Shown here piece by piece: positions 3,909 to 22,174 of a DNA stretch of 50,241 bases. A program made the position numbers and the translations under genes. Position 1 is the first letter of the stretch. Each line of letters begins with the position of its first letter. The DNA comes from a virus, in IMG/VR virus record IMGVR_UViG_3300009285_000011, positions 1-50,241 of that record; one strand, 5' to 3'. The notes beneath the pieces are model-generated. The model did not search any database and was not told the DNA's origin. It saw only the letters and a program-made list of their open reading frames with translations.

Positions 3909-4083
3909 ACTTCAAATCCTCATCTGGTGACTGTTCTATTTCTTCAGGGATTCCAAGTGGAAAATAGAAAGATTCCATTTCTTTTTTTTGAAGTCTCAAT
4001 CCAGCTAATCTGCTTTCCAAGTCACATATTTCATTGTTAATACACTCTAATCTAATAAGCCATATAGGGGTTTCATCAGACAT
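3895..4083 (-). CDS. hypothetical small coiled-coil protein (AT-rich ORF)
   Basis: This 62-aa ORF overlaps both neighbours. It is visibly AT-rich relative to its flanks. Confidence 0.45.
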   Translation of the reverse strand: MSDETPIWLIRLECINNEICDLESRLAGLRLQKKEMESFYFPLGIPEEIEQSPDEDLKFDPV

Positions 4084-5809: not shown

Positions 5810-6413
5810 ATAATGCGGGGCTTATTTGATAACTGGTGAATGCGTCGCCGATCACATTCCTGATCCCGGTCTGCACATCAGCCTGCGTGCGCTCATGCTC
5901 ACTGTCGTGGGATACGATCATGCCGCCGGGAGCGCCATACTGATAGAACGCTTTCCAGACGTGTGTGACCATATCCATCTCATGATAAGCATCCTCGAAA
6001 ATAAAATCATAGGGCGGATTATATTTGTAGTTCCAGTCAAATAAATCAGCTTTCACGCTCTCTATAATCTCATGATACCAACCTTCCACTTCCAAACAGG
6101 TAGGCTCTACACCATTATCTATCGTGGTCAATCGCCCTACTCCATTTGTCAATAGCGCCTTTGCGATATGCGCCGTGCTCGTTCCCCAACAGTTACCGAT
6201 TTCCAGGACATTTTTAGGATGCAATGCTCGAACAAGCGCGTAAAGCGCCTGACCCTCAACACCCCAGATACCCTTCTTATATTTGCTAGGATTATCCAGC
6301 GTCGGGAAATGGCCGCCCAGATTATCTTCATAAGCATAAGCAATAAGTTCACTAGCTGATAACCCATAGGTAAGCGCGATGTGAGATAGACATTCTTCGA
6401 GCGTTCCGTTCAT
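5772..6413 (-). CDS. class I SAM-dependent O-methyltransferase (Methyltransf_24 / OMT family 3-like), paralog 1
   Basis: Motifs seen are VLEIGNCWGTSTAHIAKAL..RLTTIDN..FIFEDAYH..GGMIVSHD. The start has an ATGA overlap with the upstream gene. Confidence 0.75.
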   Translation of the reverse strand: MNGTLEECLSHIALTYGLSASELIAYAYEDNLGGHFPTLDNPSKYKKGIWGVEGQALYALVRALHPKNVLEIGNCWGTSTAHIAKALLTNGVGRLTTIDNGVEPTCLEVEGWYHEIIESVKADLFDWNYKYNPPYDFIFEDAYHEMDMVTHVWKAFYQYGAPGGMIVSHDSEHERTQADVQTGIRNVIGDAFTSYQISPALCGLAMWRKPFAS

Positions 6414-7111
6414 TTAACTGCCACCCATCCGGCAAAATTCATCCAACGCCAAAAACAATCAATATGCCGGAAGCCCACCGCCTGTAGAAATTCTTCATTC
6501 ATTCGCGCTGTAACCGGGACTAATACGCCTTCCAATGCCAGCCGCTTGCGTTCAATTTGTTCCCCCGAATAACCGGCATTGCCTTTGGCAGTATAGTAGA
6601 GATCGGCCATGTCCTGATTAAGCCGCGCTGTTGCGCCGAGCACTTTTTCTACCAGAACGAGCGCTCCACCGGGCAGCAGCGAATTGTAGACATCCTGTAT
6701 GACACACTGGCGGTATTCGATAGGGATAAATTGCAGCGTCAGCACCGACAGCACCAGCGTGGCGCGTTCCGGCGGGTAAGCATGGCGCAAGTCAGTGTCG
6801 CGGATAATGACGTTCTCATTCCCAGCAAAGCGCATCTGGGCAGCAAGGCGCATCGGTTCGCTGACTTCGATACCCAGGCATTTATGTGATTTGGAATAGC
6901 AGTTGACGAATGGTTCTATCGCCTGTCCACGCGAACAGCCTAAATCGACGATCCAGCCTTCCTCCTGCACGTAGCGGCGGCCAATGTCATACACCGATTT
7001 ACGCATGACTTCGTACTGAGGAACAGACCGCGCCAACATATCCTCGAACACCTGTGAAACGCTGGTATCGAATGACCACTTGTCGGTAGGATAAATAGTG
7101 TCGCGATTCAT
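6410..7111 (-). CDS. cmoA: CmoA-like carboxy-S-adenosylmethionine synthase homolog
   Basis: The protein resembles E. coli CmoA end to end by eye: WSFD..VFEDMLARSVPQY, VDLGCSRG, LVLSVLTLQFIP..YNSLLPGGALVLVEK, GYSGEQIERKR, and C-terminal WMNFAGWVAVK. I chose the start at ATG 7109-7111 (MNRDT), which makes an ATGA overlap. Confidence 0.7.
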   Translation of the reverse strand: MNRDTIYPTDKWSFDTSVSQVFEDMLARSVPQYEVMRKSVYDIGRRYVQEEGWIVDLGCSRGQAIEPFVNCYSKSHKCLGIEVSEPMRLAAQMRFAGNENVIIRDTDLRHAYPPERATLVLSVLTLQFIPIEYRQCVIQDVYNSLLPGGALVLVEKVLGATARLNQDMADLYYTAKGNAGYSGEQIERKRLALEGVLVPVTARMNEEFLQAVGFRHIDCFWRWMNFAGWVAVK

Positions 7112-7722
7112 ACAGGTTTTCTCCATATCCCCAGACCACACTTTCCCGGCTGTATCAGAAGCGGTAAACCATCAGGCGTCACTCGCGCCATACCTTCTCT
7201 AACTGTTAATCCCACCGATTCATGGACTGCGTCATGGCTAACAATCATTGCGCCCGGTAATGCATTCTCTTTGAAGTCTGCCCACACATGCGCAGTCATC
7301 TCCGCCGTGTGCATTGCATCTTCAAACACAAAATCGACACAACCACTAGGCATCCGATAATCGAAGAGACTGATATTGACCTGTTCAATAATCCCAGCAT
7401 ACCGTTCTGGCACTTTATACATGAATGCGATGTCAATCGAAATGAGTTTACCCTGTTCGTTCCTGAATAGGGCTTCCGCGATATGGTAGGCGCTGCATCC
7501 ATAATAGCTACCCACTTCGATAGCCAGTTTAGGCTTCAATGCCCGGATAAGCGCGTAAATGATTTGCCCTTCAACTTCCCACACACTGCCACATATCCAT
7601 TTCGCATTCGCCGGGTTTTCGTCCCAACCGCCAATGGTATCTTCTTGCACATAAGCGGCGAGTTCGGATTCATTCAGGCCGTAGGCCACAGCGATTTTGT
7701 GCAGGGCTTCAGAGAGGTTCAT
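7108..7722 (-). CDS. class I SAM-dependent O-methyltransferase, paralog 2
   Basis: Motifs seen are AIEVGSYYGCSAYHIAEAL..KLISIDI..FVFEDAMH..GAMIVSHD. The protein is clearly paralogous to 5772-6413 and 7974-8612. Confidence 0.75.
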   Translation of the reverse strand: MNLSEALHKIAVAYGLNESELAAYVQEDTIGGWDENPANAKWICGSVWEVEGQIIYALIRALKPKLAIEVGSYYGCSAYHIAEALFRNEQGKLISIDIAFMYKVPERYAGIIEQVNISLFDYRMPSGCVDFVFEDAMHTAEMTAHVWADFKENALPGAMIVSHDAVHESVGLTVREGMARVTPDGLPLLIQPGKCGLGIWRKPV

Positions 7723-7987
7723 GTATAGCTATCCAGTTAATCAGTGTGGAAAGTTTGGTTGTAGTATAAATCGTCTTGTTACTTTTGTGTTCAACTAACG
7801 ACCAGGATGTCTCATCATTCCCATAAAGCGGATCACTCACGATAATCAGGTATCCATTTTGCATTAAAACATGGCTAACAAAATGTAGCAGTGCCCGTCG
7901 ATCTAGTTTCAAATCTTCGATACCCTGTTGCAATTCCATTATCACGTCTTCTCGAAATGCTAGAATACTAGTCTCAGAGAGATTCAT
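7709..7987 (-). CDS. hypothetical 92-aa protein (AT-rich insert between the methyltransferase paralogs)
   Basis: I chose the start at ATG 7985-7987 (MNLSETS), which follows GGGGAG. The longer track ORF that runs to 8074 would overlap the upstream methyltransferase by 100 nt. Confidence 0.5.
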   Translation of the reverse strand: MNLSETSILAFREDVIMELQQGIEDLKLDRRALLHFVSHVLMQNGYLIIVSDPLYGNDETSWSLVEHKSNKTIYTTTKLSTLINWIAIHEPL

Positions 7988-8612
7988 AGTTCTCCCCGGT
8001 GAACTTGTACATCGAAAGCCCGCACGGTGACGGGTCAGTAACATATATCTTGACCTGATTGAGATTGACGCCACCCTTGCGCATCCCCTCGCGGATATAT
8101 TGCGCCATGCCTGTCGTCACATCATGCGACAGGATATAACCACCGACTTTCAGGATGCGCCGCAAATTCTGGTAAATAACGTGTACCTGAAATTCGCTGT
8201 GATTGCCGTCGTCGAAGATAAAATCAAACGGCACCTGTACCTGCGGAACGTAGAGATTGGCATCCATCCATTGGACAGTGATGTACTCGCGTAGATCATC
8301 AGGAATGCCAGCGCCGCCATTCGGCGTTATATCGACGGTTGTTACATGGCCGCTTTCGTTTTCTTTGCAGGCTGCCGCCAAGTGCGCTGCGCTGCCGCCT
8401 TGATATGTGCCGATTTCCAAAATGCGCTCTGGCTTCAGGACCCGAACGAGCGCATACAAAATACGCCCCTCATTGCCGTAACTAATCCCCTGTTCGTTGC
8501 CTTCATCGAATCCGAGCAGGGTATCTTCTTTGGCGTAACGTTTCAACCACGTCACCGACATGTCGAAATGGTCAGCGATGGCCTTCAATGTGCCAGCAAG
8601 TTGTTGGCTCAT
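7974..8612 (-). CDS. class I SAM-dependent O-methyltransferase, paralog 3
   Basis: Motifs seen are ILEIGTYQGGSAAHLAAAC..HVTTVDI..FIFDDGNH..GGYILSHD. A GGTGA RBS precedes the start. Confidence 0.75.
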   Translation of the reverse strand: MSQQLAGTLKAIADHFDMSVTWLKRYAKEDTLLGFDEGNEQGISYGNEGRILYALVRVLKPERILEIGTYQGGSAAHLAAACKENESGHVTTVDITPNGGAGIPDDLREYITVQWMDANLYVPQVQVPFDFIFDDGNHSEFQVHVIYQNLRRILKVGGYILSHDVTTGMAQYIREGMRKGGVNLNQVKIYVTDPSPCGLSMYKFTGENYESL

Positions 8613-8616
8613 TCAA

Positions 8617-8850
8617 TCACCTTTGGATACGAATTGATCTTGGCAAATTATCGAAAATGTCTTTGGATGTATATCCTACCCATGACCCATGAGAAAATAC
8701 TCGATAATCTCTATGAACATAGGTAGGGTATAACCGATACTGCCATTCCTCAGACTGCTCTTTTGAACAGTCATTCACATTTACATCAGATAATGATTGA
8801 ATGAGAGAGTAATCTAAAAATGTCTCCCATGGATGTCCCGAATAATTCAC
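8617..8850 (-). CDS. hypothetical 77-aa protein (AT-rich)
   Basis: The ORF has an ATGA overlap with its upstream gene. No motif was recognised. Confidence 0.45.
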   Translation of the reverse strand: MNYSGHPWETFLDYSLIQSLSDVNVNDCSKEQSEEWQYRLYPTYVHRDYRVFSHGSWVGYTSKDIFDNLPRSIRIQR

Positions 8851-9608
8851 TCGATTATTTCCTTAGTCCAATAGGGGTGGTTCTGCATAAATGACGGCAA
8901 ATAATCTATCGGTTCTATAGTCTCAGGATTCCAATATTCGCTTCCAATCGGATGGCAGTCCTGTTGGGCATTCGCCAACCATTTATTTTCGCGCCAGCCA
9001 TCATGTCGTAACTGCCCGACATGCCCATGTACTGCCAGCTTGTAATCTAACAGCCATGTCGGGATGGCATAGCCCATATGGTTAATCGGCGCGGTATGTA
9101 GGTAGCCTTCACCTGTTCGCCCTGGTACGATTACGCGCACAGGGTAGGCCGGATCATGCAGCACGGCCCGGCGGAATGACCGCCAGTAATGGATCATATT
9201 CATGCGATAACCCCACTTATCCCCTGCTAGCGCCAATTCAATCACCTCTCGCGCCACGCCCGCCTGCCAGATTTCATCATAATCAAGCACGAGTACCGCT
9301 TCGGCATTCGGGCAAATAGTATGGATGCTATCACGTTGGACGCCTTCCGCCGTCCAGTCGCCGTCGATCCATGCCAGTTTATCCCCCGCTGCTTCGTTGG
9401 CTTGCAGGTAGAGGTTATAGCGTGACTCGCTGTCTGGCAGCGTGTAACCATTTACCCGCGTCCCATGCGACGGCTGCGCGGCGTAGAGGATGAAATACAT
9501 GTCTACAGCGTCGATAATGGAGCGGATAGCATAGGACAAATACGGGGATCCATAATGCAGAGCCGTATAACCGATAATCACGTTACCAGCCTTCCGGTTT
9601 ATCGACAA
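8847..9608 (-). CDS. putative GT-A fold glycosyltransferase
   Basis: This 253-aa protein has a Rossmann-like N-terminus (VIIGYTALHYG) and a DxD-like LVLDYDEIW motif. Its context is the glycosyltransferase island. An alternative GTG start lies at 9581. Confidence 0.4.
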   Translation of the reverse strand: MSINRKAGNVIIGYTALHYGSPYLSYAIRSIIDAVDMYFILYAAQPSHGTRVNGYTLPDSESRYNLYLQANEAAGDKLAWIDGDWTAEGVQRDSIHTICPNAEAVLVLDYDEIWQAGVAREVIELALAGDKWGYRMNMIHYWRSFRRAVLHDPAYPVRVIVPGRTGEGYLHTAPINHMGYAIPTWLLDYKLAVHGHVGQLRHDGWRENKWLANAQQDCHPIGSEYWNPETIEPIDYLPSFMQNHPYWTKEIIE

Positions 9609-9825
9609 GAATAACAGTCATAAAATATTGCGCGCCTTCCTTTTGTGATGATGGCACTTCCCCAGCCCGCCGCCACGCTTCATCTGCTGTCCAGCCATAG
9701 GCCACGATTGCCAATGAATGAAATTCGCGCACAATGAAAAACTCCCGACACAACGGATTATCCTTGATTTGTTGTGGATCAATATCAACCCATGAGCCAT
9801 CCTCTAGCTTTACTGTCTTTGCCAT
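9583..9825 (-). CDS. hypothetical 80-aa protein
   Basis: The ORF start overlaps the TAA of the upstream gene (TAATG). Confidence 0.45.
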   Translation of the reverse strand: MAKTVKLEDGSWVDIDPQQIKDNPLCREFFIVREFHSLAIVAYGWTADEAWRRAGEVPSSQKEGAQYFMTVILVDKPEGW

Positions 9826-10574
9826 TATACATGCGCCTCTACTACTTTATCGAACTGTAGTTCATCACATAACAAATGATGCAGCGCCAGTCCGCGCTCC
9901 TGCAATCGCTCATCACGCAGCGCCAGTTTTACTAATGTGAACATCGTCTCATAACCGCCCTGATAAATGATGTCGGTAAACGGCGCGGTATCCCAACCGT
10001 TCTCGGCAATCAACGGCAGTCCGTAAGCGCCTGCCAATACCGCCCGGAGCGGAGCGATAGCCGGGAACGCCGCCTGCTGATGGATGTGGAGTAGGGCGCG
10101 ACTTTTCATCATAGCCTGTCGCCGCTGTTCGCCCCAACCATTCGGCGCAATCCGGTAGCCGCTTTCCCTCATCCTTCCCAGCAGCCAGCCGCGACGATAA
10201 ATTTCCGCATAGGACAGGTGAATAAAATCGTATTCGGATGGATACTTATCCAGCGTTCCTAATTCCGCCCTACCCCCTAACGGCACGTATCGTGCTCCGA
10301 TGCGCTCGGCGAATGTGCGGTTGCTCGTCCACGTTTCGGCTACTCCAGCCTTCTGTGCGTAATCACCGTACCATTCCAGCAGCCAGAAGATAATCCGGGC
10401 GCGGGGTTTTATCCATGACAGCGATGTATCACAGCCTGTTAGAATATAGGTATGATCGCTATGGATGTCGATTTCATCCTGATAAATGATCGGGTATCCA
10501 CTGAAACGCACCATATCCCAAAAGTCACAATAGGATTGGTATTCATGGCGCGGTTGGGCGAAGATCAGGCTCAT
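9825..10574 (-). CDS. GT-B (GT1/CgeB-like) glycosyltransferase domain protein
   Basis: The C-terminal pattern KSRALLHIHQQAAFPAIAPLRAVLAGAYGLPLIAENGW resembles the nucleotide-sugar binding half of GT1/GT4 enzymes. Confidence 0.5.
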   Translation of the reverse strand: MSLIFAQPRHEYQSYCDFWDMVRFSGYPIIYQDEIDIHSDHTYILTGCDTSLSWIKPRARIIFWLLEWYGDYAQKAGVAETWTSNRTFAERIGARYVPLGGRAELGTLDKYPSEYDFIHLSYAEIYRRGWLLGRMRESGYRIAPNGWGEQRRQAMMKSRALLHIHQQAAFPAIAPLRAVLAGAYGLPLIAENGWDTAPFTDIIYQGGYETMFTLVKLALRDERLQERGLALHHLLCDELQFDKVVEAHV

Positions 10575-10577
10575 AGA

Positions 10578-10808
10578 TTATTCCGAATTATCCCGAATAA
10601 GCGAATAAAAAAATGGCATCCATTGTCCTTTTATAATACCGTCACATAGCCAGTTATCCCCTTCATGAGTCATAAACCATACGTTACCATCCACCGGCTT
10701 GCCTGCTTGTTTTTTCAGGATATACATACGATCAACAGCAATATCCTCAATTGTATATTCTTCTGCTGGGAATCCTTCGACTTCAACTCGGTAAATAGTT
10801 TCACTCAT
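10578..10808 (-). CDS. hypothetical 76-aa protein
   Basis: The ORF has an ATGA overlap with its upstream gene. Confidence 0.45.
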   Translation of the reverse strand: MSETIYRVEVEGFPAEEYTIEDIAVDRMYILKKQAGKPVDGNVWFMTHEGDNWLCDGIIKGQWMPFFYSLIRDNSE

Positions 10809-11809
10809 ACTAATTTCTTTTTTGCAACTCTCATTACCTTTTCGACATCCGGTTTCACGGCGCTGCGGTCAATCCTGATAGGCAGCGGTGGCGGAGTCGG
10901 CATAACACCCGTTTGCCGTAACACCCGCTCGAAACCATCCAGCCCTTCAAACATCGGTGGCATATCGGCTAACAATTCGGGAATGATTTCCCATAACTCC
11001 GGCGAATGTTCAGCATCCCGGATATCTACCCATACGCGGCGCGGCCAACTAAGCCGCGCATAACGCCGCCCGGTCACGCGCCCATATTCCGCGCGATTGC
11101 CCTGCCATTTCGCCATTACCAGCACATCATTCTCCTGGCGCTGGCCTTCGGGAATAAATTCGTCAATTACTGGCGCATCCAGACAACAGCCCATATTGCC
11201 GTCATACCTCCGAAATAGTTCTTGTCGCAATAACTGCGTGCGCCCCGACTCTACGCTGTCTTTGGCGCGCTGCCCATCAATCGAATAATGAACAAGCGGC
11301 TCTTTGAGATGTTGGGCGCAGACCTGCGCGCCTCGTAACTTACAGAATAGATCGGTGTCTTCCATCGCTTCGAGTGTTTCATCGAAGCCATTCGCTTTAC
11401 GCACCGCTTCAGTCGGAAGCAGCGCCGCGATGTGATGCCAGCCCCACTGCGGCGGGCAGTAGGGGCGTTCAGGAGCGCGGATGATTTGTTCATCCTGATA
11501 CCAGTCGGTGTACACGTAGCGACCCTGCTGATAAACTGCCAGACACCGCTCGACAAACGGCGGTTCGATCCAATCATCGGCATCGAGAAACACCACAAAC
11601 GGCGTTTCTACCATATCGAGCAGCCGATTGCGAATGTACCCCGCGCCGAGCAGGTCATCATCATTCATGTAGTAACATTTGCAGGCTGTCGTCTGGGCCT
11701 TAACGCTATCCAGAGCGCGATCTATAATCGACTGATGATAGGGCGCTACCGGAATAAGAATGGAAACGTTAATCATAGTGTCCATCATAATGTGCCTTAT
11801 TCCATGCAA
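10805..11809 (-). CDS. family 2 glycosyltransferase
   Basis: Motifs seen are VSILIPVAPYHQSIIDRALDSV..FVVFLDADDW. The true start is probably an internal ATG (11788 or 11776), because 11809 overlaps the upstream ORF by 41 nt. Confidence 0.75.
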   Translation of the reverse strand: MHGIRHIMMDTMINVSILIPVAPYHQSIIDRALDSVKAQTTACKCYYMNDDDLLGAGYIRNRLLDMVETPFVVFLDADDWIEPPFVERCLAVYQQGRYVYTDWYQDEQIIRAPERPYCPPQWGWHHIAALLPTEAVRKANGFDETLEAMEDTDLFCKLRGAQVCAQHLKEPLVHYSIDGQRAKDSVESGRTQLLRQELFRRYDGNMGCCLDAPVIDEFIPEGQRQENDVLVMAKWQGNRAEYGRVTGRRYARLSWPRRVWVDIRDAEHSPELWEIIPELLADMPPMFEGLDGFERVLRQTGVMPTPPPLPIRIDRSAVKPDVEKVMRVAKKKLV

Positions 11810-12240: not shown

Positions 12241-13656
12241 TTATGTGCGGTAACTTGTGCCGCCATCATAATAGAAACTTCCGCTCGGCAGCGCGTTATG
12301 GATCGGCGCGGCGAACGTGTACTGTAGATTGTCGATACGTCCGGCTAACCAGGGCGTCTCCAGAATGAGGCGCATCTTATTGGCGAACTGATATTCCTTG
12401 CAGAACGCTGTTTCCTCAGCGCCCGACAACCACATACCATTATTCAATGCGATACGCTGCGTTCCGGCGAAGTTATCGAACTCCTGCAAGTATTGGTTAT
12501 CCATTGGGAAGTATTCCAGACGGCATAACGACATTCCCGCCCAACTAACTGGGATGATGTACATATCGCTTTCAAACGTGTTGGCGGCTGGAGTAGTCTG
12601 GGGAATACCTTCGCTGAATACCACTGGCAAAGGCTTGCCATCGACCATGATGTACTGCCCGCTCAGAAATTCGCGGCGCATCCGCCCGACATTTTCGGCG
12701 CTTGTATTAATTTCGTCATACTGCCCGCCGGCGCACTTGTACAGATCGTACTTGCACACGTAGTTTTCAACGAATGTGCGGTACAACTCTTCGCGCATAA
12801 CGGCTACCCACTGGACGCCGACCATTCCCGCCTTACGAGCGCGGTTATTCAGACCATACATCAGATCATGTAATGCCTGTACGATGTCGCGTCCATCGGC
12901 GGTAGTCGTATTGACATTGGCGCTGTAGGTAATGATGGCGCTATCAACAGCCGGACAGGTAAGTTCGGTCACACGATCCGTATACCCAGTTTTGACCTGC
13001 CGATCCAGTCCATCAAACTCTATTGTCCATCCATGCGCAGTTGCAGTATAGGCTGTACCAATATTACCCTGTACAAGTACGACATCAAGCGTCCGCTCAA
13101 ATTCGACACCGATACGCCACAGTTCGTATTGTAACTGCGAGCGGGCATCAGCCAGTTTATAGAAGATGTCGGGAATGAGCGGGTTTTGAGTAGGCCCGGC
13201 ATTCAAGATTTGCGCTGGGATGTCAGCGCGGTTACGTAGCTGCCCAAGCTCAGGAATAGCCTGCAAGTCTGTTTTGATGATATATTTCCCGAACTTGTAA
13301 ATCTGCTGACAGACTTTCGCAGCGCCGACAGCAGGTGGATCGCCGCAGAACCCGGCAGCATTTGTGCCACTTGCTGTCGTGACGCCTGTCATAATTTCGA
13401 GTATCTCTTCAGTGTACTCAGAGCGTGAAACGCCTAATACACCAACCAAACTATCAGGACGAGCGAGGGCGCTAAACCGTTCTGGTCTTACGCCAGGATA
13501 GGTGAATAGCCCATACTGCGTGGTGCTTTCATGATATGGCCCATGCAGCGCGGGGCCAACTAAGGTGGTAGACGCTGGCGTATGCTTGGCAGCAGACGCG
13601 ATCATCTCCGAAATTTCTTTCATTTGTTCTGAGGTATATACAGCTTGAACACCCAT
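12241..13656 (-). CDS. major capsid protein
   Basis: This 471-aa ORF lies directly downstream of the protease and the acidic scaffold. The call is positional, and an HK97 fold is presumed. Confidence 0.7.
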   Translation of the reverse strand: MGVQAVYTSEQMKEISEMIASAAKHTPASTTLVGPALHGPYHESTTQYGLFTYPGVRPERFSALARPDSLVGVLGVSRSEYTEEILEIMTGVTTASGTNAAGFCGDPPAVGAAKVCQQIYKFGKYIIKTDLQAIPELGQLRNRADIPAQILNAGPTQNPLIPDIFYKLADARSQLQYELWRIGVEFERTLDVVLVQGNIGTAYTATAHGWTIEFDGLDRQVKTGYTDRVTELTCPAVDSAIITYSANVNTTTADGRDIVQALHDLMYGLNNRARKAGMVGVQWVAVMREELYRTFVENYVCKYDLYKCAGGQYDEINTSAENVGRMRREFLSGQYIMVDGKPLPVVFSEGIPQTTPAANTFESDMYIIPVSWAGMSLCRLEYFPMDNQYLQEFDNFAGTQRIALNNGMWLSGAEETAFCKEYQFANKMRLILETPWLAGRIDNLQYTFAAPIHNALPSGSFYYDGGTSYRT

Positions 13657-13660
13657 GATT

Positions 13661-14335
13661 TTACTCCTTCAATGGGACGCCAAAGAACGTCTTCTTACCG
13701 TTCGCGCCCTTTTCCAGTTCTTTTTTCAAGTCAGCATTCTCGATAACTGTTTCAGCGGCCTGTGACGCCTGGCGCGGGCGGCTGTTAACTTTAGCCTCTA
13801 AGGCTTTGACCTGCGCCTGGAGCGCATCCACTTTACCAGTTTCTTTCACTAAAGGCGCGAGCGCGGCTACCGTTTGCGCCATCTGGATAATGGCCGGAAT
13901 GAACTCGCCAACATCCTTATAGATAGCTGTCGATTCGGCGGCCATCGCCTTGACCTGCGAAGTCAATTCCATAAAGGCTTCCATCGTCGGTTTCTTTTCC
14001 TCGTCTTCATCTTCCGGCGCTAGTTCCTCTTCCATCATAGTTTCTGGCGCTTCCTCTTCTGGCGCAGGCTCAGCATTCGCTAACTTACCTAGCATAATTG
14101 CCAGCACCTCATCGACAATCGCTTCATCGGGATTGTCGGTCAGTTTGGTTAGCGTCGCCATCAATTCTTCGCGCATATCTTCTAATACGCCCTTGTTTTT
14201 ATGCTCTTTAGTTTCATGGCCGCGCTTCTTGAGAATCTCGGCCACCCGACTTAGCGCCTTTTTGAGTTCATCATCCTGTGACTTACCCAAAATTTTATCC
14301 ATCAACGACAGGCGCTCATTATCTTTTGCACTCAT
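13661..14335 (-). CDS. scaffolding protein
   Basis: The protein is highly acidic and helical (EEEAPETMMEEELAPEDEDEEKK). I chose the start at ATG 14333-14335, which follows GGAGG and lies downstream of the protease stop at 14340. Confidence 0.65.
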   Translation of the reverse strand: MSAKDNERLSLMDKILGKSQDDELKKALSRVAEILKKRGHETKEHKNKGVLEDMREELMATLTKLTDNPDEAIVDEVLAIMLGKLANAEPAPEEEAPETMMEEELAPEDEDEEKKPTMEAFMELTSQVKAMAAESTAIYKDVGEFIPAIIQMAQTVAALAPLVKETGKVDALQAQVKALEAKVNSRPRQASQAAETVIENADLKKELEKGANGKKTFFGVPLKE

Positions 14336-14339
14336 CGGA

Positions 14340-14936
14340 TTAATCCTCCATAACTTGTGCGAAGGTAAACAGATTGGCCGCTCGTGTGAGCGGCAGGATA
14401 GAGGTTTCATTTTTCAGGATGAGTTCATACATTCCATCCTGTCTATCTTCTTTAATGTAATTGAAGCCAATGCTGGCTCCCCATGTGACCGGCGTAGTTT
14501 CCAACGCATCCCATACTGCTTTACGCGAAACCATGTACGGTTCTTCGCCGGAGTGCCGCGCCAAATTAATCATCGCATCGGGTAACTCTCTGGCAACTTC
14601 GACTAGAAATGTGCCATATATTTTGGCCGCCATAATTTCGCCAAGCGGCTCGCCGCCATGCCAGTAAAGTAGCGGGTTCGGGGAAAATATCTTGACATAA
14701 CCTTCTAACGCCTTTTGGCGGACAATTTCTTGCTCGCGATCTTTGTAGCTGTTGGAGCTTATCAGAATCATACGGCGCAATCCGGCCTTACTGCCAAATA
14801 CCAGCGCCAGCGATTTGCCGCGCCGACAGTTCTCATAAGCGATAGCGACAGCTTGATCCTTTGGTTTGCCGGAGCGAATGAGTTCCGCGATATTGGCGCT
14901 AATTGTAGTTTTATCACAACCGGGTTTGAGGGGCAT
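14340..14936 (-). CDS. prohead serine protease (HK97 gp4 / S78-like)
   Basis: [13 protein letters not shown] is a His-type motif and WGASIGFNY is a Ser-type motif. The gene sits between the portal and the scaffold. Confidence 0.6.
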
Positions 14937-14937
14937 G

Positions 14938-15168
14938 TTACTCTCTCTTAAACCTCACAGGCCGTGACACTTCAAATTCCGGCTCAAATTGAATCCCGTG
15001 ATCGCCTTCAAACGGCTCAGTATGGTCATTCTTCATCATGAGAATTTCATCGGGTATACCGTCCGGGAACGCTTCGCAGGTGGGAGTATCTTCATGCTTG
15101 TGCTTGCAATAAGCGCAGGCTGACAGCGCCAGTCCATCTTTTGGAAAACTGAATTTATCATTACTCAT
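14938..15168 (-). CDS. small Cys-rich protein
   Basis: This 76-aa protein has the pattern [18 protein letters not shown]. It overlaps the 3' end of the portal-MuF-ART gene. Confidence 0.5.
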
Positions 15169-17833
15169 CAGAGATGATCTCCATTACTAACCGGTTCCGG
15201 CCTTTGATACGTTTTGCCTCAACCACCCGATACGCAGTCCCGCGTCCTAACAAAAACTCTGCCTCATGATATCCGAAATTCGATTCTGATGCGATATAAG
15301 CGCCACGCGCCCCCTTAGGTACGCGGATTTCATAATCGAAATCTCCCATCGCATATCTACCTGATTTAATCGAAGTCGAGGTAAATCCAGAATCGCGGAT
15401 TACTGTGCCTTGTAATTTCTTGAAATCTTTAGGGGATAAATTACCCCCATTCGGCAATCCACGCCCGCCATCCGTTCGATATACGGTGATGTCACGATCT
15501 AGCCCATCCCGTTCAGTAAGCCTATCAAGATTCTCGATGTGAGCTAAAGTTGTCGGATCAGCCGTCCGGTTTATACCTCGCAGATGTTCATTGATGGGGG
15601 TATAAGCTGTACTAGAATATTCCTCAATACTGGTAATTTCTGCTTGTCCTTCAGGTGTCGTTTTTAGATCATCAAGGGTTTTTGACCATTTATTCTTAAA
15701 TTCCTCATCTTCGACATCAACCGATTCATAGGCGCGCTTCGGCTGTTTATCTGGTTTTTCTTCGGCTTCATCGCCATTCCCCCCACCACTACCTGCGCCA
15801 AACCGCCCGGCTTCACCGCGTGGATGTTTACCTTCATCCCATACCGCTTTACCTCGTAGGAACGTAATCAATCGCTGGAATGTGCCGCTCACGCCGCCGC
15901 GTGTGAACGAGCCACGCGCCCGCGCTTCACTCTTGACTAATCGGCAGCCGCACTTAAAGCCTTTACATTCCAGCACATCACTCTTAGGCAAGATACCTTT
16001 AGCGATATAATCCTTCATCGCATGTACCTGTCCATTCATACGCAGGCAGGTCTTACAATGTTCCTTGACCGGGTTCATAACCCACAACCATTTACTATTC
16101 CTGGCAGTGCTGCCTAGCGCCTTATAGTAGAGCGGCGTCAATGATTTATTGGCCCACATGTCGGCGCGGCTGGCGATGAGTGATGGTGTGAAGTCTTTTT
16201 CGCTGTAGAGTTCGTTTATGAAGTTATCAACATAATCACTCTGTTCAGCGCGCCAGACCGCAATCGCCGTCTGCGCATCGCTGTCGAGCGTTGGATTTTC
16301 AATACCGCCATCGCGCATCCCGTCGAGCCATACACTCTCGCCGCCCTCCTGCAATCGGGCGCGCAATCCGAACTTGACAGCAGACGGGCTAACAATCTTC
16401 TCATTACCAAACATGACTAGCCGAGCGAAGATATCTTTGAATGCCTGAGTGCTATCTGATAGCGCCCGTTCCTCGCTCATGGTCGTGGCATCGGGCGGCG
16501 TCTGGGCGCTAATCTCCGGCGCGGTCACGGTTTCAATAATGGCCGGAGCATCGGGATTCACGTCATCTAACCGGATGACGTGGCCGCCCTGATCGGTCAA
16601 TACGTCATGGAAGGCAGTCATCTGGTTAGCAAGTAACTGGCGGCGCTCGTCGGGCGTCATCTCACTTTGTAATGAGAGCGCGATACCTGCCCACGTCTGC
16701 GCGATATTGGCTTGTTCCTGATCTTCCTCCGGGTCGCGATACTGGAACATAAACAGCGCATCGGAAGGCAGCACGGCGTTAATCACGCGCTCGATTTGTT
16801 TCAGGATACGGCCTATCGCCTTGCCTTTGCTCTTCTCGTGTAGGATAACCGACTGCGTTCCCGTGCCGATCCCAGCGCCAGTCAGTTCCCACATATCCTG
16901 AATGTCAAGGCCGATACCGAGCGCAATTTCTTTGACGTTAAGCGCCTTATATTGTTCGAGATCAAATTTCTCTGGCGGCTGTGAGAATGACACAAACTCA
17001 ACAGCAGGTTCCTCTTCGGCAGCCCTGCCATAAAGCGGCACGATCTGCCCCCATTTACCGCCGGAATCAATTTTACGCTCTTCCTCATTGCGATTAAGCG
17101 CCGCCTTGACCTGGTTAGCGTCCAGGTTCTTAAACAAAACAAAACCGGGCGGCGGGTTATCGTCCAACATGCGCTCGACATAACGGTTAATGAGGATGTC
17201 GCGCATGACCGCGCCGATACACCGCGACAGCGCCGACTCGCCGTAGCCATAACTCATCTCATAAGCATCAGGATTATCAAGGAAACGTACAACACGCGAT
17301 CCATGCATGGTATGAAGCACGCCCAGCGCATCCATATAAATCACCGGATACTCAGGATCGCCCGTCGGCCAGCAGCGCAAGCTGTCAAGCACGCTTAGTC
17401 CGGTCAATTGTCCGGTCATCGGTTCTAGTGGATCGCCAGGGCCAATAAGTTCTACATATGCGCCACCGTCATAACGTGAGAAGTCGATAATGAGCTTGCT
17501 CAGGAACGAGTCCCAACCGCGCCCGAAATCGGATAGATGAAGCACATCCTGATAATAGTCGGCATCAGCAGGGCGCGCGGTGATTTCCCAGGGCGTCGAT
17601 TGAATGCGTTTAATCAATCCGGCAATCGCGCCTTTGAACAAGTTGTTATAATCATGGCGATAATACTCTAAGAGTTTGGCCTCACGTTCCCGCGTGCCAT
17701 GACCAGGCAGCAAGGGGCCGCGCCAGTATACGCCAAGCGACAGCGGTGTAGCGGACTTGCGTCGTTTGATGTCGGGAAGCTGCTGGACGCTCTGCGTCCG
17801 TTCGACTTGTATGATTTCAGTCGGAGTAGGCAT
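15161..17833 (-). CDS. portal - MuF(SPP1 gp7-like) - ADP-ribosyltransferase fusion protein
   Basis: This is a continuous 890-aa ORF. The N-terminal ~450 aa are portal-like. The middle segment carries the MuF Cys motif (KEHCKTCLRMNG..ECKGFKCGCRL). After a GGGNGDEAEE linker, the C-terminus carries R-S-E ART motifs: YTPINEHLRG, TVYRTD, GFTSTS and YHEAEFLLGRG. Confidence 0.8.
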   Translation of the reverse strand: MPTPTEIIQVERTQSVQQLPDIKRRKSATPLSLGVYWRGPLLPGHGTREREAKLLEYYRHDYNNLFKGAIAGLIKRIQSTPWEITARPADADYYQDVLHLSDFGRGWDSFLSKLIIDFSRYDGGAYVELIGPGDPLEPMTGQLTGLSVLDSLRCWPTGDPEYPVIYMDALGVLHTMHGSRVVRFLDNPDAYEMSYGYGESALSRCIGAVMRDILINRYVERMLDDNPPPGFVLFKNLDANQVKAALNRNEEERKIDSGGKWGQIVPLYGRAAEEEPAVEFVSFSQPPEKFDLEQYKALNVKEIALGIGLDIQDMWELTGAGIGTGTQSVILHEKSKGKAIGRILKQIERVINAVLPSDALFMFQYRDPEEDQEQANIAQTWAGIALSLQSEMTPDERRQLLANQMTAFHDVLTDQGGHVIRLDDVNPDAPAIIETVTAPEISAQTPPDATTMSEERALSDSTQAFKDIFARLVMFGNEKIVSPSAVKFGLRARLQEGGESVWLDGMRDGGIENPTLDSDAQTAIAVWRAEQSDYVDNFINELYSEKDFTPSLIASRADMWANKSLTPLYYKALGSTARNSKWLWVMNPVKEHCKTCLRMNGQVHAMKDYIAKGILPKSDVLECKGFKCGCRLVKSEARARGSFTRGGVSGTFQRLITFLRGKAVWDEGKHPRGEAGRFGAGSGGGNGDEAEEKPDKQPKRAYESVDVEDEEFKNKWSKTLDDLKTTPEGQAEITSIEEYSSTAYTPINEHLRGINRTADPTTLAHIENLDRLTERDGLDRDITVYRTDGGRGLPNGGNLSPKDFKKLQGTVIRDSGFTSTSIKSGRYAMGDFDYEIRVPKGARGAYIASESNFGYHEAEFLLGRGTAYRVVEAKRIKGRNRLVMEIISDE

Positions 17834-17836
17834 AAC

Positions 17837-18124
17837 CTACTTCACCTCGATTTGAATTTCATCAACTAGAATATCGCTGGTGGTAGTGAGTGTGATCGCA
17901 TTAGTAAGTGTATAAGTCACACCGACAGCGCCGCCGCTTATTCGGATGAGCGCCCTTGTGTTGTAGGTATCCACAGAATCGCTTTCCTTAGTAAGACCAG
18001 ATGGGCTAATCACCCAGGCGGATGAGGCTATCGTATCGCCATTGCCATTGTTTTCATTCAGCAATACCTTGTGCCAATCTATAGCGTAGGTTTCTTTAGC
18101 CTCAGTGAACTTCAAAAATTTCAT
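17837..18124 (-). CDS. hypothetical 95-aa beta-rich protein
   Basis: The ORF has an ATGA overlap with the upstream repeat protein. Confidence 0.45.
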   Translation of the reverse strand: MKFLKFTEAKETYAIDWHKVLLNENNGNGDTIASSAWVISPSGLTKESDSVDTYNTRALIRISGGAVGVTYTLTNAITLTTTSDILVDEIQIEVK

Positions 18125-19707
18125 TCCTCACCCTCATAAATTGTATTACGCCGGGCAGGTTGATAAATCCGTTCCCTTGCCATAGATTTGTATGTGCGAT
18201 TGCGCATATCTAATATATAGGCCCGGTCATCGTCTACTGCCCAGATATACAGACTGCCTGTTATGGAAGTGACGACGATAATCTCTCCGGCGATGTGATG
18301 GTCTGTTACGCCCGCGCCCGTCACTGTGAGCGCACCAGTGATCGTGCTTGCGCTGGCAATTTCTCCGGCGACTGTAATTTCGTGGCTTAAAATACCAGTG
18401 ACGGTTGCGACTGATACTATTGAACCATCTAACGAATGATCGACATTGACAGCACTGCTAATTGTTGTGCTGGATGCCACAATTCCGCTAAACAGATGAT
18501 CGGCAGAGAGAGCGCCACTCACGATTGCTTGCCCGGCAATTACTCCAGCAATGTTATGGAGCGTTCCGCTGCCAGTAACCGTGAGATCGCCTGAAATCGT
18601 TGTTATTGCGACAACTACACCTGTAAGCAGATGGTTAGCGGTGAGCGCCCCGGCGACGGTAGTGATATTGGCGACTATACCCGCCAGTGGATGATTGGCC
18701 GTCAAAGCGCCACTAACCGACGCACTGACGACAATCGTTCCGGCTATCGGATGCGCCACAGTTAGCGCGCCAGTGAATGTCGATAGGCTGGCGATTGTAC
18801 CTGCCAGTGGATGAGCCGCCGTTAGCGCCCCGGCGATTGTCGATGTGTTGGCGATTACTCCGCCAATAGCGTGCGGGTCTTTGGTCAATGCGCCGCTAAT
18901 TGTGCTGACTGCATCGACTACACCGGCAAACGGATGGGCAACGGCAAGCGCCCCGGCTACCGTCGTAACCGCGTTGACTGTGCCCACCAATGGATGTGTC
19001 GCTGTAAGTGCACCCGTGACTACCGATGTGCTGGCGATTTCTCCGGTAATCGCTTGCGGCGTTTTGGTCAATGCGCCGCTTACCGTGGTGACGGCAGCAA
19101 TCGCGCCGGCTAGAGGATGAGCAACCGTTAATGCGCCAGTGATTGTCGTTACGGCATTCACTACCCCGGCGATAGCCTGAGTTGCCGGGGTATAGTCGAT
19201 TTCTAGCGTCACGTAATCGACAAACACGTCGGCATTAGCGCCTGTGGCAAGCGCGCCGATTGCAACACCGAAATCGGCATCTTTCACCCATGCCGAATCG
19301 AGCGCGTTACCCCACTTATCCGCCGCGCCGCCTTTGGTGATAACTGTGGCACTGTTGGTCGTAAGCGCCACCGGTGTCGCGCATTGATTCGTCCCGACCT
19401 TCGCTCTTGCCGTATTCAGCAGTTGCAGCAAATCGAGCGATACTGTGCCGTTAGCGTAATACGTATTGATCCGGCAGGTTACACCGTTGATGACCGAACC
19501 ATCTGAGATGGCCGAGAAATCGAACGTATACGCCTTTAAGACGTAGGTTTGGTCGGGCGAATCGAAAGAAGCATGAGTAACGCTGGCATCGTTGCCATCA
19601 TTGGCGAAAACATTGGTTGGATTAACCCACGTGCAATTCGCGTCATCCCAGGGCGTCTCTGAGATGGTTTCCGCCGCAGTTGGGAAGACTTCACCAGTGG
19701 TAGCCAT
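18121..19707 (-). CDS. repeat protein: ~177-aa N-terminal domain plus 15 tandem ~20-aa Thr/Ser-rich units
   Basis: The unit consensus is AGxIAxxTTxxGALTxxHPL. The repeats run from aa 178-487 (nt 18247-19176). Confidence 0.6.
   Translation of the reverse strand: MATTGEVFPTAAETISETPWDDANCTWVNPTNVFANDGNDASVTHASFDSPDQTYVLKAYTFDFSAISDGSVINGVTCRINTYYANGTVSLDLLQLLNTARAKVGTNQCATPVALTTNSATVITKGGAADKWGNALDSAWVKDADFGVAIGALATGANADVFVDYVTLEIDYTPATQAIAGVVNAVTTITGALTVAHPLAGAIAAVTTVSGALTKTPQAITGEIASTSVVTGALTATHPLVGTVNAVTTVAGALAVAHPFAGVVDAVSTISGALTKDPHAIGGVIANTSTIAGALTAAHPLAGTIASLSTFTGALTVAHPIAGTIVVSASVSGALTANHPLAGIVANITTVAGALTANHLLTGVVVAITTISGDLTVTGSGTLHNIAGVIAGQAIVSGALSADHLFSGIVASSTTISSAVNVDHSLDGSIVSVATVTGILSHEITVAGEIASASTITGALTVTGAGVTDHHIAGEIIVVTSITGSLYIWAVDDDRAYILDMRNRTYKSMARERIYQPARRNTIYEGEE
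18247..19176 (-). repeat. coding tandem repeat, 15 units of 60-78 nt
   Basis: Unit starts fall at aa 179, 199, 220, 240, 260, 281, 301, 321, 341, 361, 386, 406, 426, 446 and 472 of the 528-aa protein. Confidence 0.8.
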
Positions 19708-19714: not shown

Positions 19715-20017
19715 CTAGCGGTCATCTTTCCAGTACCGTCCTCCGACTTTACGCCAGACAGTCAACCGCGCTGTGCCGCGAAATACCCGTCGTTTGGGGC
19801 CGGCTTTCATCCGGCGGACAAATTCTTCATCGCTTTTTATCATGCGCGCTGCCAGTTCAATGACACAGCCATCGCTATGCACGAGGTTCTCAGGGCGACT
19901 ACCTTTGCCATCACAAAACCGACATTCGATGATTTGCAACCTGTCATCGGCCACCGCCCAAAAGTATCGATCTTCCTGAAACATCGCTAACAAAACACCG
20001 AGTGGAGTTTCGATCAT
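19715..20017 (-). CDS. hypothetical 100-aa protein
   Basis: The ORF has an ATGA overlap with its upstream gene. It contains a CxxC..C pattern. Confidence 0.45.
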   Translation of the reverse strand: MIETPLGVLLAMFQEDRYFWAVADDRLQIIECRFCDGKGSRPENLVHSDGCVIELAARMIKSDEEFVRRMKAGPKRRVFRGTARLTVWRKVGGRYWKDDR

Positions 20018-20439
20018 GTCATCGTCACATCAAAGTCGCCAATAGCGATCTGGGCAGTATCGCCATCATTGATCGTCTTAGCAACAGTTAAATCGAGCCA
20101 CCCCAGCATATTCCCTGCACCCCATGTACCGCTATCGGTATTGCCACAATATGTGACCGATCCCCAGTTACCGCCGGCAGCTGCCCAGCCCGTAACGGCT
20201 ACGCCATTCGACTTTGCGCCTGCCGCCGCCGCCGGGAAGTTGGTAACATTATTGGTCAAAGATTGGCGGGCATAGCCGTTAGAGTTAGGTACTTCGTTAG
20301 CAGCAGCGCCAGTACTGATATCAGACAGCGCCGCCGTCCATAGACCAAAGTACATGGTCGCCGGCACGCTATATGCCGCATTACCCCATACGTGATCGAG
20401 TAATTCGAGTTCCAAAAAATCAGATAATGATCCTGCCAT
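20014..20439 (-). CDS. hypothetical 141-aa Gly/Ala-rich protein (possibly virion-associated)
   Basis: The ORF lies immediately downstream of TerL. No function was recognised. Confidence 0.4.
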   Translation of the reverse strand: MAGSLSDFLELELLDHVWGNAAYSVPATMYFGLWTAALSDISTGAAANEVPNSNGYARQSLTNNVTNFPAAAAGAKSNGVAVTGWAAAGGNWGSVTYCGNTDSGTWGAGNMLGWLDLTVAKTINDGDTAQIAIGDFDVTMT

Positions 20440-20448: not shown

Positions 20449-21669
20449 CTATCTAAAATTCCAAAGAAGATACCGACTCGCGTCGGGTGTATGGTCGTTG
20501 AGTTTGAGCGGCTTGCGCTCGCCAGCGTAGATTAAACCGGAGCGATCATCGTAGCGCCATAACTGCAATTCGCGGATGAGGTTAACGCAACGCGGATGTA
20601 TCTTGAGTAATCGCACTCCATTACCATCACAGATGAAACGCCGCAGCACCTTGACGCCTTCCGTGACTGTATGCGTTCCAGGGCCAGTCATAATGCCCGC
20701 GTCGTGCAGCCGGGCACGTAACTCGACGGCGCTGCTATCGACCATCGCTAACACCGGGCGCGGATAGGGCCATGTAAAGACTTCGTTAATCGAGGCTTCA
20801 GGCAATGCCAATGTCTGATAATATTCAGCAAAGAAATTCAATCCGCCATCCGGCCTTAACTGCGCTAACAAGAAAACTCGCGGATGATGGCCGGGCGTGC
20901 CGACGCCTTCACCATGCGCATACCCATCATCAACGCCCCAATAGACTTCGCCAAGCGCCGGATCATAATCTACCGCTTCAGTGACGTTTTCGGTGAGTGA
21001 AAAATTGTCGATGATAATGCCTTCAAACGAAACGAAAGCGGCGTCGAGTTCCTGCTGTGCGAACAACCCGGCATATTGCGCTCGCAACCGCGCTTTGTAC
21101 TCTACCGATGTATGGATATTATCTTCCATACGCGATGTGATGTATTTACTATCAGGTAAGGGATTGGCGACGAATAAGTCATATAACCAGTGAAACATCC
21201 CGGCGGGCGTCGAGGTCAACCATATTCGTTCCGCACCGCGCCTGATTTGCCCAACAGCGATGTCGAAGGCTTCACGTGTTCGAGATACACGCGGCTCATC
21301 AAACCATAACCACGCCCGGTTAGGTCCGCGCAAACTATCCGGCCTATCGGCGCTGCCAAAATACATGGTGCTGCCATTGGCAAATGTTCTCAAGATACGC
21401 GGGTTATCGAGCTTGCGTGTGATGTAATGCGGCGGAAGCCAGCGCATCAATTCGGGAATGATAACTGCATGGATATTGTCATACGTAGGCGCAACGATGA
21501 GTCCGTCTTCACCTGACTGATAAGTCGTGACTTCGAGGATGCTCTGAATAGCGCCTGCCGTCGTCTTGCCGCTGCCCCTGCCGCCATTAAACCAGACGAG
21601 GTTACGTTTGCGGATAGTATGATGAAACTTAGATTGTTTAGGCAGCGCGGTATAAACACGATTATTCAT
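20449..21669 (-). CDS. terL: terminase large subunit
   Basis: Walker A is FNGGRGSGKTTAG and Walker B is AWLWFDEP. The length is 406 aa. The gene follows TerS with an 8-nt overlap. Confidence 0.9.
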   Translation of the reverse strand: MNNRVYTALPKQSKFHHTIRKRNLVWFNGGRGSGKTTAGAIQSILEVTTYQSGEDGLIVAPTYDNIHAVIIPELMRWLPPHYITRKLDNPRILRTFANGSTMYFGSADRPDSLRGPNRAWLWFDEPRVSRTREAFDIAVGQIRRGAERIWLTSTPAGMFHWLYDLFVANPLPDSKYITSRMEDNIHTSVEYKARLRAQYAGLFAQQELDAAFVSFEGIIIDNFSLTENVTEAVDYDPALGEVYWGVDDGYAHGEGVGTPGHHPRVFLLAQLRPDGGLNFFAEYYQTLALPEASINEVFTWPYPRPVLAMVDSSAVELRARLHDAGIMTGPGTHTVTEGVKVLRRFICDGNGVRLLKIHPRCVNLIRELQLWRYDDRSGLIYAGERKPLKLNDHTPDASRYLLWNFR

Positions 21670-22174
21670 CTTTGCCGATGTTGATCGTCAATCCTTCAAA
21701 GAGCGGCTTGCCATCTTCGCCCGTGTGTACATGGCGATCAACAAGTAAGGCATGAACTTTCGCCAACGTTTCAAGAGCGCGCTGACTATCAGTGAATTTG
21801 ACGCGCATCCCATTCCGCGTGTTGCTAATTTCCTGCACCAGATGCAACAGACCGGCTTCCCGGATAGCTTCCATATCCACTGCAATAATCGCGCCATAGT
21901 TTGTGATGTGCTGTGTAATTTCATTGCGCGCAATCTGTGACAAGCGGTGAAGCACTTCATCAGCACTCATTCGCATTTCTGACAAGCGAATGTCAATCTC
22001 TTTAGCGACCTCAACATCTTTCAACAATCGCTGCCCAATGGAATATGCGGTTTTCTCTGAATATCCAGCGCGTTTCGCTGCCTCAGTCGCATTCCAGCAT
22101 TGTAGATATTCGTTGATGAATGCCTTTTGTTTGTTAGTCAACTTCCCACCTATAGGGAACGAAGTTACGGACAA
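21662..22174 (-). CDS. terS: terminase small subunit
   Basis: LTNKQKAFINEYL..NATEAAKRAGYSEKTAYSIGQRLL is a Terminase_2-type HTH N-terminus. Confidence 0.8.
   Translation of the reverse strand: MSVTSFPIGGKLTNKQKAFINEYLQCWNATEAAKRAGYSEKTAYSIGQRLLKDVEVAKEIDIRLSEMRMSADEVLHRLSQIARNEITQHITNYGAIIAVDMEAIREAGLLHLVQEISNTRNGMRVKFTDSQRALETLAKVHALLVDRHVHTGEDGKPLFEGLTINIGKDE

Follow-up and report, generated by a model that had tools for sequence, protein, structure and literature searches.

A portal-like phage protein carrying a remote MuF-like domain and an ADP-ribosyltransferase cassette that opens with a recurrent junction motif

Effectors carried on the structural proteins of phage heads have been described in several forms. 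MuF polymorphic toxins, which are hypothesised to be loaded into the head and injected, have a conserved carrier and a horizontally moving toxin cassette as their hallmark, and 14% of these toxins are ADP-ribosyltransferases (ARTs) (Jamet et al. 2017, PMC5576092). One such MuF-ART, Bxa, ADP-ribosylates arginines and has small non-enzymatic immunity proteins beside it (PMC11699363). Microbacterium phages encode portal-MuF fusions and, separately, MuF-VIP2 fusions (PMC7302621). In two papers on polyvalent proteins, Iyer et al. report effectors joined 'to MuF and portal domains' (2017, PMC5512222) and fusions of ARTs with MuF and portal (2022, PMC9503650); the portal- or MuF-fused effectors named in their text are PBECR, 2H, InPase and Nudix. 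Here we describe ORF890, an open reading frame (ORF) of 890 codons in the IMG/VR virus record IMGVR_UViG_3300009285_000011, of which the stretch of 50,241 nucleotides analysed is referred to below as the window. ORF890 encodes a portal-like domain, a MuF-like domain and an ART in a single chain. On balance, we favour its being a portal with a MuF-like extension and an acquired ART that is loaded into the head, freed by proteolysis and ejected with the DNA to modify host proteins.

The two ends of the window share an exact 77-bp overlap (1-77 and 50165-50241), which identifies the window as a complete, circularly assembled genome of ~50.16 kb (about 50,164 bp). A first-pass annotation, made from the sequence, had placed a single uninterrupted ORF at 15161-17833, and the sequence does contain 890 codons there with no internal stop. 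The strand had been missed; the gene is on the minus strand. An AlphaFold2 model, built from 70 aligned family members (the query and 69 homologues), has a mean predicted local distance difference test score (pLDDT) of 81 and consists of three well-folded bodies (aa 1-419, 453-646 and 697-890) and two disordered linkers (aa 420-452 and 647-696). The features of the gene are as follows.

15161..17833, minus strand: ORF890, portal, MuF-like domain and ART, 890 codons, from the ATG at 17833 to the stop codon at 15161-15163
16577..17833, minus strand: portal domain, aa 1-419, pLDDT mostly above 90, Foldseek matches to portals
16478..16576, minus strand: disordered linker 1, aa 420-452, from the portal crown to the MuF-like domain, pLDDT below 50
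15896..16477, minus strand: MuF-like domain, aa 453-646, four long helices and a small four-cysteine (Cys4) module, pLDDT about 93-96
15746..15895, minus strand: disordered junction and Gly/acidic linker, aa 647-696, pLDDT below 50 at aa 647-653 and 658-696
15800..15841, minus strand: junction motif WDEGKHPRGEAGRF, aa 665-678, at which the cassette begins, recognised as the motif of extended family members and by a break in G+C content at third codon positions (GC3)
15164..15745, minus strand: C3/VIP2-type ART, aa 697-890, with R786, S819-T820-S821 and E857-A-E859, recognised by PF03496 and Foldseek

The C-terminal domain is certainly an ART. PF03496 (ADPrib_exo_Tox) matches aa 716-885 with a score of 88.4 bits against a cut-off of 23.4 (E=5e-25), and Lmo0066 (8za7_B), Vip2, CdtA and C3 are among the matches returned by a sequence search of the PDB. 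By Foldseek, the modelled domain matches 8za7_B with E=9e-13 and a template modelling (TM) score of 0.80 on the target, C3 with a TM score of about 0.72, and also VIP2, CDTa, C2-I and iota. The peptides of the R-S-E signature listed in the first-pass annotation are all present, YTPINEHLRG at aa 744, VYRTD at aa 784, FTSTS at aa 817 and HEAEFLL at aa 856, as is the Gly/acidic linker that it had placed before the ART (about aa 679-712). R786 (ITVYR), S819-T-S (FTSTS) and E857-A-E859 are in register with ITVYR, MSTS and EKE of Vip2 and with Lmo0066, and R, ST[ST] and ExE are kept in all seven ARTs inspected (the query, P0001, P0002, P0027, P0061, P0171 and P0140). Having an intact R-S-ExE triad, the ART is apparently catalytically competent. 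When ORF890 was compared by tblastn with 50,697 GenBank phages, the match was confined to the ART domain, which is 28-32% identical to Microbacterium phage fusions, and there is a partial PHROG match of aa 717-787 to Alt-like ARTs (phrog_802, E=1e-5). When the ART part by itself was used in a word-indexed search for homologues, the only match was a fragment of the same sequence, which led to scaffold L005, and no target information was found in the literature on Lmo0066.

The identity of the N-terminal domain as a portal is well supported at the level of the modelled fold. Foldseek matches it in the PDB to the portal of phage 812 (8qje_A, E=2e-9, 456 columns, TM score 0.51 on the target). In BFVD the top matches are long viral proteins named portal, for example a 1,201-aa 'portal, HK97', and the matches include a 1,069-aa 'Zeta toxin domain containing protein' and annotated MuF-ART fusions of Microbacterium and Mycobacterium phages. 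Pfam detects no portal family in ORF890, even at E<=10 and with the N-terminal 440 aa scanned separately, and a profile of the 70 family members finds no portal among PDB sequences; PF04860 nevertheless matches 15 of these 70 at consistent positions, with 22-34 bits, all under the Pfam cut-off of 39.1. Synteny agrees, as an ORF890-type gene directly follows the terminase large subunit gene (TerL) at loci L001, L003, L004, L015 and L016; four genes intervene in the window. The portal-like N-terminal half read from the sequence at first pass is thus borne out by fold, by sub-threshold matches of homologues and by gene position, with Pfam silent on ORF890 itself.

The middle domain is probably a remote relative of MuF. 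The cysteine cluster on which the MuF reading had been based is present, with HCKTC at aa 592 and ECKGFKCGC at aa 622, and C593, C596, C623 and C628 are invariant in the family alignment. Membership of MuF is more distant than had been supposed. PF04233 is not detected in ORF890, even at E<=10 and with the middle 271 aa scanned separately, and matches 8 of the 70 aligned members, all below threshold, the best with 26.5 bits (E=1.2e-5) against a cut-off of 29.6; the scores for P0034, P0004 and P0045 range from 16.7 to 26.5 bits, and all fall on the Cys-cluster segment. By hhalign, the MuF-like segment aligns in register over 82 columns with the Pfam-valid MuF domain of P0219 (P=1e-3), with weaker values against SPP1 gp7 (P=0.06) and Rasovi gp5 (P=0.03), compared with 0.58 for the negative control. 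Sub-profiles of the family found nothing significant in SPP1 gp6, SPP1 gp7 or Rasovi gp5 by hmmsearch. Pfam, which had been proposed as the check on the domain boundaries, found the ART, whereas the portal and MuF-like domains needed transitive and structural evidence. In homologues of 750-790 aa, ~100 additional residues separate the portal from the MuF-like matches, and in a distant relative, L010 (2086-3930), the portal part and the MuF-like Cys segment are two adjacent ORFs. The second of these holds an intein (PF14890, E=2e-13), ending at the Cys-cluster segment.

A homologue search of 5.8 billion proteins returned 133 homologues of ORF890, of which 120 were listed. About 115 of the 120 are 640-790 aa long and end shortly after the Cys cluster, at positions equivalent to aa 632-670 of the query, so that the portal plus MuF-like fusion is the norm of the lineage. 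An ART is present in four of those listed (P0001, P0002, P0027 and P0061), and P0029 has a different extension of ~260 aa, possibly GNAT-like (a faint match, E=0.05). The alignments of P0001 and P0002 with ORF890 span the proteins completely, and that of P0003 begins at residue 1. In a tree of the core, the carriers of an ART are dispersed, and the nearest core relatives of the two best-sampled, P0001 (81% identity) and P0002 (89% identity), have no ART. With the closest core relatives lacking it, the ART behaves like a mobile cassette of the kind seen in MuF polymorphic toxins. Base composition changes at the same place. GC3 along ORF890 is 0.52-0.67 up to codon ~660 and then 0.28-0.40, with averages of about 0.60 for the core and 0.40 for the ART, against an average of 0.54 (standard deviation 0.05) for the ORFs of the genome, and in each of the five extended homologues the GC3 of the extension is lower than that of the core, the drop ranging from 0.05 to 0.22. 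As judged from these sequences, the ART is a horizontally acquired, moving cassette on a conserved portal-MuF carrier. The lineage is known from metagenomes only; one member, P0120, sits on a 1.9-Mb contig. Four of seven relatives from species-representative genomes (L006, L008, L009 and L012) are in metagenome-assembled genomes of Chloroflexota/Anaerolineae, which hints at the host phylum, the binning of phage contigs being weak evidence.

Each extension opens with a sequence like WDEGKHPRGEAGRF, or with the variant YNPNQPRDxxGRF, followed by a Gly-rich linker. The consensus of this junction motif is [FW][DN]E..HPR[GD]..G[RK][FW], with the variant [FY][ND]P.QPRD..G.W, and in ORF890 the GC3 break coincides with it. 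As a regular expression, the motif is present in all six extended family members and in none of 115 unextended ones, and it occurs 78 times in 240,000 fetched residues, as against no occurrence in 20 shuffles. A HMMER search with the junction and ART gave 2,016 matches at E<=1e-3 among 1.84 billion representatives. The motif is also found between domains in other architectures. It lies between portal and ART in P0219, recurs between the ARTs of the tandem arrays P0138 and P0176 and occurs twice in P0201 (an Acb1 anti-CBASS protein fused to ART), where it is found between Acb1 and ART. Among the giant proteins retrieved by the HMMER search, it is repeated 16 times in P0139 (5,313 aa), 17 times in P0211 (7,334 aa) and six times in P0151. 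No description of it was found in the literature searched, including the polyvalent-protein paper. In the window, no other ORF contains the motif and ORF890 is its sole carrier. What the first-pass annotation overlooked is that a portal-MuF core is normal for the family, with the ART as an occasional cassette, and that a conserved motif marks the junction. We suggest, tentatively and with limited credence, that the motif is a portable and previously undescribed module delimiter, which could be a signal for processing, release or ejection and also a recombination joint for effector cassettes, and that in ORF890 it would allow twelve portal-tethered ARTs to be released and injected.

Related fusions exist elsewhere. 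P0219 (1,321 aa) has Pfam-valid portal, ART and MuF domains in that order (113, 65 and 48.6 bits). P0171 (1,127 aa) has the order portal-MuF-ART, with a Pfam-valid portal of another lineage (82 bits), an ART and a MuF-like domain that belongs to the ORF890 family (family hidden Markov model, E=1e-55), and P0140 and several fragments have further portal, MuF and ART combinations. In all, at least seven other clusters in public protein sets combine these domains. Relatives of the ART are fused to Pfam-valid MuF (P0150 and P0219), Phage_min_cap2 (P0183 and P0264) and portal (P0171 and P0219) domains. Tandem arrays of three to five ART modules per protein are also seen among these relatives (P0201, P0138, P0163 and P0176), one with an N-terminal Acb1. 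With P0219, P0171, the other clusters and the fusions 'to MuF and portal domains' of PMC5512222, the triple fusion is not unique, and the initial statement that no described example was known was too strong. For the order portal-MuF-ART with an ART as effector, no description was found in the portions of the literature text examined.

ORF890 is in a head module, in which the minus-strand order is the terminase small subunit (TerS), TerL, four genes, ORF890, a 76-aa ORF, a 198-aa ORF, a scaffold-like protein, a putative capsid protein and a block of glycosyltransferases and methyltransferases. The neighbouring genes are as follows.

21662-22174, minus strand: terminase small subunit, PHROG and Pfam terminase matches
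20449-21669, minus strand: terminase large subunit, PHROG and Pfam terminase matches
17837-18124 and 20014-20439, minus strand: homologues, by Pfam, of the podophage GP4 adaptor gp77 (PF23148) and fibre I gp80 (PF23140)
18121-19707, minus strand: 528-aa protein of degenerate repeats of about 20 aa (GALTxxHPLAGxI...), between the GP4-like fibre and adaptor genes
14938..15168, minus strand: 76-aa Cys/His-rich ORF, overlapping the ART stop by 8 nt, phrog_33375 (function unknown)
14340..14936, minus strand: 198-aa candidate assemblin-like prohead protease, from Foldseek, H93/S155 and position
13661..14410, minus strand: scaffold-like protein, acidic and helical, from position and homologues in L001, L003 and L007, with no family match
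12241..13656, minus strand: putative major capsid protein, 471 aa, from position

The GP4-like adaptor and fibre genes between terminase and portal suggest a GP4-like podovirus with an unusual gene order. Tandem Repeats Finder detects no DNA-level tandem repeat in the gene for the 528-aa protein, and the protein has no family match. The candidate capsid protein has counterparts with 25-56% identity at the same position in L001, L003, L006, L007, L008 and L012 (25% being a partial match, in L008); because it has no family match, it is assigned by position alone. Directly after the capsid gene, and within the structural module, 4076-11809 (minus strand) is a dense block of glycosyltransferase and S-adenosylmethionine-dependent methyltransferase genes, possibly for glycosylation or other modification of the virion. 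At 34136-34741 (plus strand) there is a 201-aa pentapeptide-repeat protein (Pfam E=1.4e-35), among the very few Pfam-recognisable genes at 22-50 kb.

A prohead protease had been predicted adjacent to the fusion gene. The candidate is plausible but not immediately adjacent, as the 76-aa ORF intervenes. In its predicted structure, the 198-aa protein has herpesvirus proteases as all of its top 47 PDB matches by Foldseek, all weak (best E=2e-3, TM score about 0.4), and among homologues H93 is invariant and S155 nearly so. It has no Pfam, PHROG-protease or PDB sequence match; phrog_2423, a small motif whose function is unknown, matches its N-terminal 41 aa. In L001, L003, L006 and L007 its homologues are located between the portal-MuF and the scaffold and capsid genes, and the homologue in L007 is fused to that of the scaffold. 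The 76-aa ORF has a sole homologue (57% identity), which follows the ART of P0027 in L017, the ART closest to that of ORF890; none was found in L001, L003, L004, L015 or L016. From its position and this co-occurrence it is a possible partner or immunity protein of the ART, a toxin-immunity pattern that fits loosely.

The C-terminal end of portal proteins faces the capsid interior. Each portal subunit would bring one ART into the procapsid, giving up to 12 copies around the portal crown, and the ART would then be freed by proteolysis in the disordered junction region. The candidate assemblin-like protease, whose gene is the second one downstream, could make the cut, as could some other activity that acts on the junction motif or close to it. 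Once free, the ART could exit through the portal channel along with the DNA and, in the newly infected cell, use NAD+ to mono-ADP-ribosylate host proteins early in infection. Arginine is the proposed target residue, because of the ExE motif and the arginine specificity of the MuF-ART Bxa (PMC11699363). The host would be redirected or disarmed, as by T4 Alt and in line with the proposal made for MuF-ART toxins. The ART may serve takeover of the host or anti-defence, and the Acb1-fused relatives hint at counter-defence. This is a strategy of the MuF polymorphic-toxin and polyvalent-protein type, differing in that carrier and portal form one covalent chain instead of binding to each other. The head-module context (TerS, TerL, portal fusion, candidate protease, scaffold and capsid protein) supports it.

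Several points weigh against this interpretation. The twelve copies, the packaging, the cleavage and the ejection of the ART are all steps that we infer, and an ART that was not cleaved would stay tethered within the capsid and be unable to reach the host. The middle domain, probably a MuF relative, matches that family below threshold, and the 198-aa protein, a probable but highly divergent prohead protease, has weak fold matches and no sequence-family match. Since the junction motif is confined to ORF890 in the window, it is not a generic prohead-protease site shared with the scaffold and capsid proteins. MuF toxins are almost exclusively in temperate phages (Jamet et al., PMC5576092), and no integrase family, nor any ARH or Macro family, was found among the 42 ORFs scanned at 22.3-50.2 kb.

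An alternative that we consider unlikely, but by no means negligible, is that the portal-attached ART acts in the producer cell and is never ejected, modifying components of packaging or assembly, or else ADP-ribosylating defence sensors of the host that recognise the portal or terminase and so shielding assembly. The covalent portal tether, an odd delivery route for a soluble effector, would then be readily understood, as would the absence of the motif from the other head proteins of the window, and the ART release site in ORF890 is itself a proposal. However, the ART clade and junction motif are present also in giant polyvalent proteins and in portal-free MuF fusions, which argues for a general deliverable module rather than a portal-specific function, and the long disordered linkers resemble release or spacer elements.

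Rather improbable, in our judgement, is an antibacterial MuF-type toxin (cf. Bxa and Apk2) that serves inter-bacterial competition or benefits the lysogen and has the 76-aa ORF as its immunity protein. The small ORFs that such a toxin would need are non-homologous across the ART-bearing loci, and L016 has only an opposite-strand ORF. In favour of it, among effector-bearing loci where the protease homologue could be placed, genes separate it from the fusion in the window (76 aa), L001 (154 and 406 aa) and L017 (84 aa and three more), and small ORFs (54 aa each) follow the fusion gene in L015 and L004, whereas in the effector-less L003, L006 and L007 the protease homologue is directly after the portal-MuF gene. 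At the C-terminus, family members vary in having an ART, a different domain or no extension, the 76-aa ORF accompanies the ART most similar to that of ORF890, small immunity proteins adjoin Bxa (PMC11699363), and the best structural match of the ART is from a Listeria ART-ARH toxin-immunity pair. Set against this are the failure to find ARH, Macro or integrase families in the ORFs scanned, and the nature of the 76-aa ORF, which matches a PHROG of unknown function, has a GC3 (0.48) less low than that of the ART and may be an unrelated small head gene.

That the ART is a degenerate, catalytically inactive remnant retained as a structural or binding module seems very improbable. Inactive effector domains do occur in head proteins, for example the inactive PBECR of Mu gp30 (PMC5512222), but here R786, S819-T-S and E857-x-E859 are intact and conserved in every ART-bearing relative, the PF03496 score far exceeds the cut-off and the fold is modelled with confidence.

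A public scaffold, L005 (ENA ERZ28564304, SAMN03202998), matches window 18852-5161 exactly apart from a 10-N gap (L005 2484-2493) that replaces window bases 16365-16369, and the ORF890 gene is called there as 540 plus 332 aa. We reject the reading of ORF890 as a frameshift or assembly artefact. That the long ORF arose from an error of assembly or consensus, hiding a frameshifted gene or separate portal-MuF and ART genes, is barely credible despite this gap and split gene call, since 10 N stand in for five real bases that preserve the reading frame, the site (~aa 488) is inside the MuF-like domain and away from the ART junction, homologues align straight through it, the model there has a pLDDT of about 95, and full-length fusions are known from independent samples (P0001, 915 aa; P0002, 892 aa; P0061, 861 aa; P0171 and P0219); we read the gap as one of scaffolding and not as a frameshift.

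MuF-linked toxins are widespread, and their entry into and exit from the capsid are still hypothesis. If, as we favour, ORF890 is a head-loaded effector, the portal-welded version fixes both copy number (up to 12) and location (the portal crown), so that packaging, cleavage and ejection become directly testable. Should the tentative reading of the junction motif also hold, the motif would specify the way in which ARTs and other effectors are released from carriers that range from portal-MuF proteins to polyvalent proteins of up to 17 modules. Its recurrence in portal fusions, ART arrays, an Acb1-ART fusion and polyvalent proteins of 5,000-7,000 aa gives a sequence handle on the partitioning of multi-effector proteins. 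The ART cassettes move among uncultured phages that have GP4-podophage-like adaptor and fibre genes and relatives binned with Chloroflexota.

ORF890 can be compared with five groups of described proteins. Like MuF polymorphic toxins (PMC5576092; EFV and Bxa, PMC11699363; the MuF-VIP2 fusions of Microbacterium EH and EJ, PMC7302621), it has a MuF-type carrier from the head module and a variable C-terminal toxin, here as there a C3/VIP2 (PF03496) ART, in a cassette that is present or absent among close relatives. It differs in that the carrier is covalently on the portal, implying 12 copies as against the one to two reported for SPP1 gp7, in that its MuF domain is remote from PF04233 and has a Cys4 module, and in being encoded by a phage with no demonstrable immunity gene or lysogeny module, from a lineage known only in metagenomes. 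The portal-MuF fusions of actinophages (Microbacterium EA3, EA5, EA8 and EB; PMC7302621) likewise have both functions in one chain, directly after terminase, but are not reported with a toxin, and outside the ART ORF890 has no detectable similarity to GenBank phages. The resemblance to polyvalent proteins (PMC5512222 and PMC9503650) is the union of a virion structural domain and an enzymatic effector in one chain; polyvalent proteins of 1,200-7,300 aa share the junction motif and ART clade with ORF890, and P0219 and P0171 are its Pfam-valid analogues, whereas ORF890 has a single effector module.

T4 Alt, the analogy proposed at first pass, is a capsid-packaged ART that is injected with the DNA and acts on host proteins. 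Alt is directed by an N-terminal capsid-targeting sequence and is trimmed by the gp21 protease. It is a free protein and not part of the portal, and the sequence similarity to ORF890 is marginal. Lmo0066 (8za7_B), Vip2, CDTa, iota Ia, C2-I and C3 have the fold and R-S-ExE signature of the ORF890 ART (best E=9e-13 by structure and 3e-13 by sequence) and are secreted bacterial toxins, delivered through type VII or LXG-type systems or binary-toxin systems or acting alone, whereas the ART of ORF890 sits in a phage structural protein. ORF890 is thus a further example of the head-packaged MuF and polyvalent effectors, a known class, and its notable features are the fixed portal tether and the recurrent, apparently undescribed junction motif.

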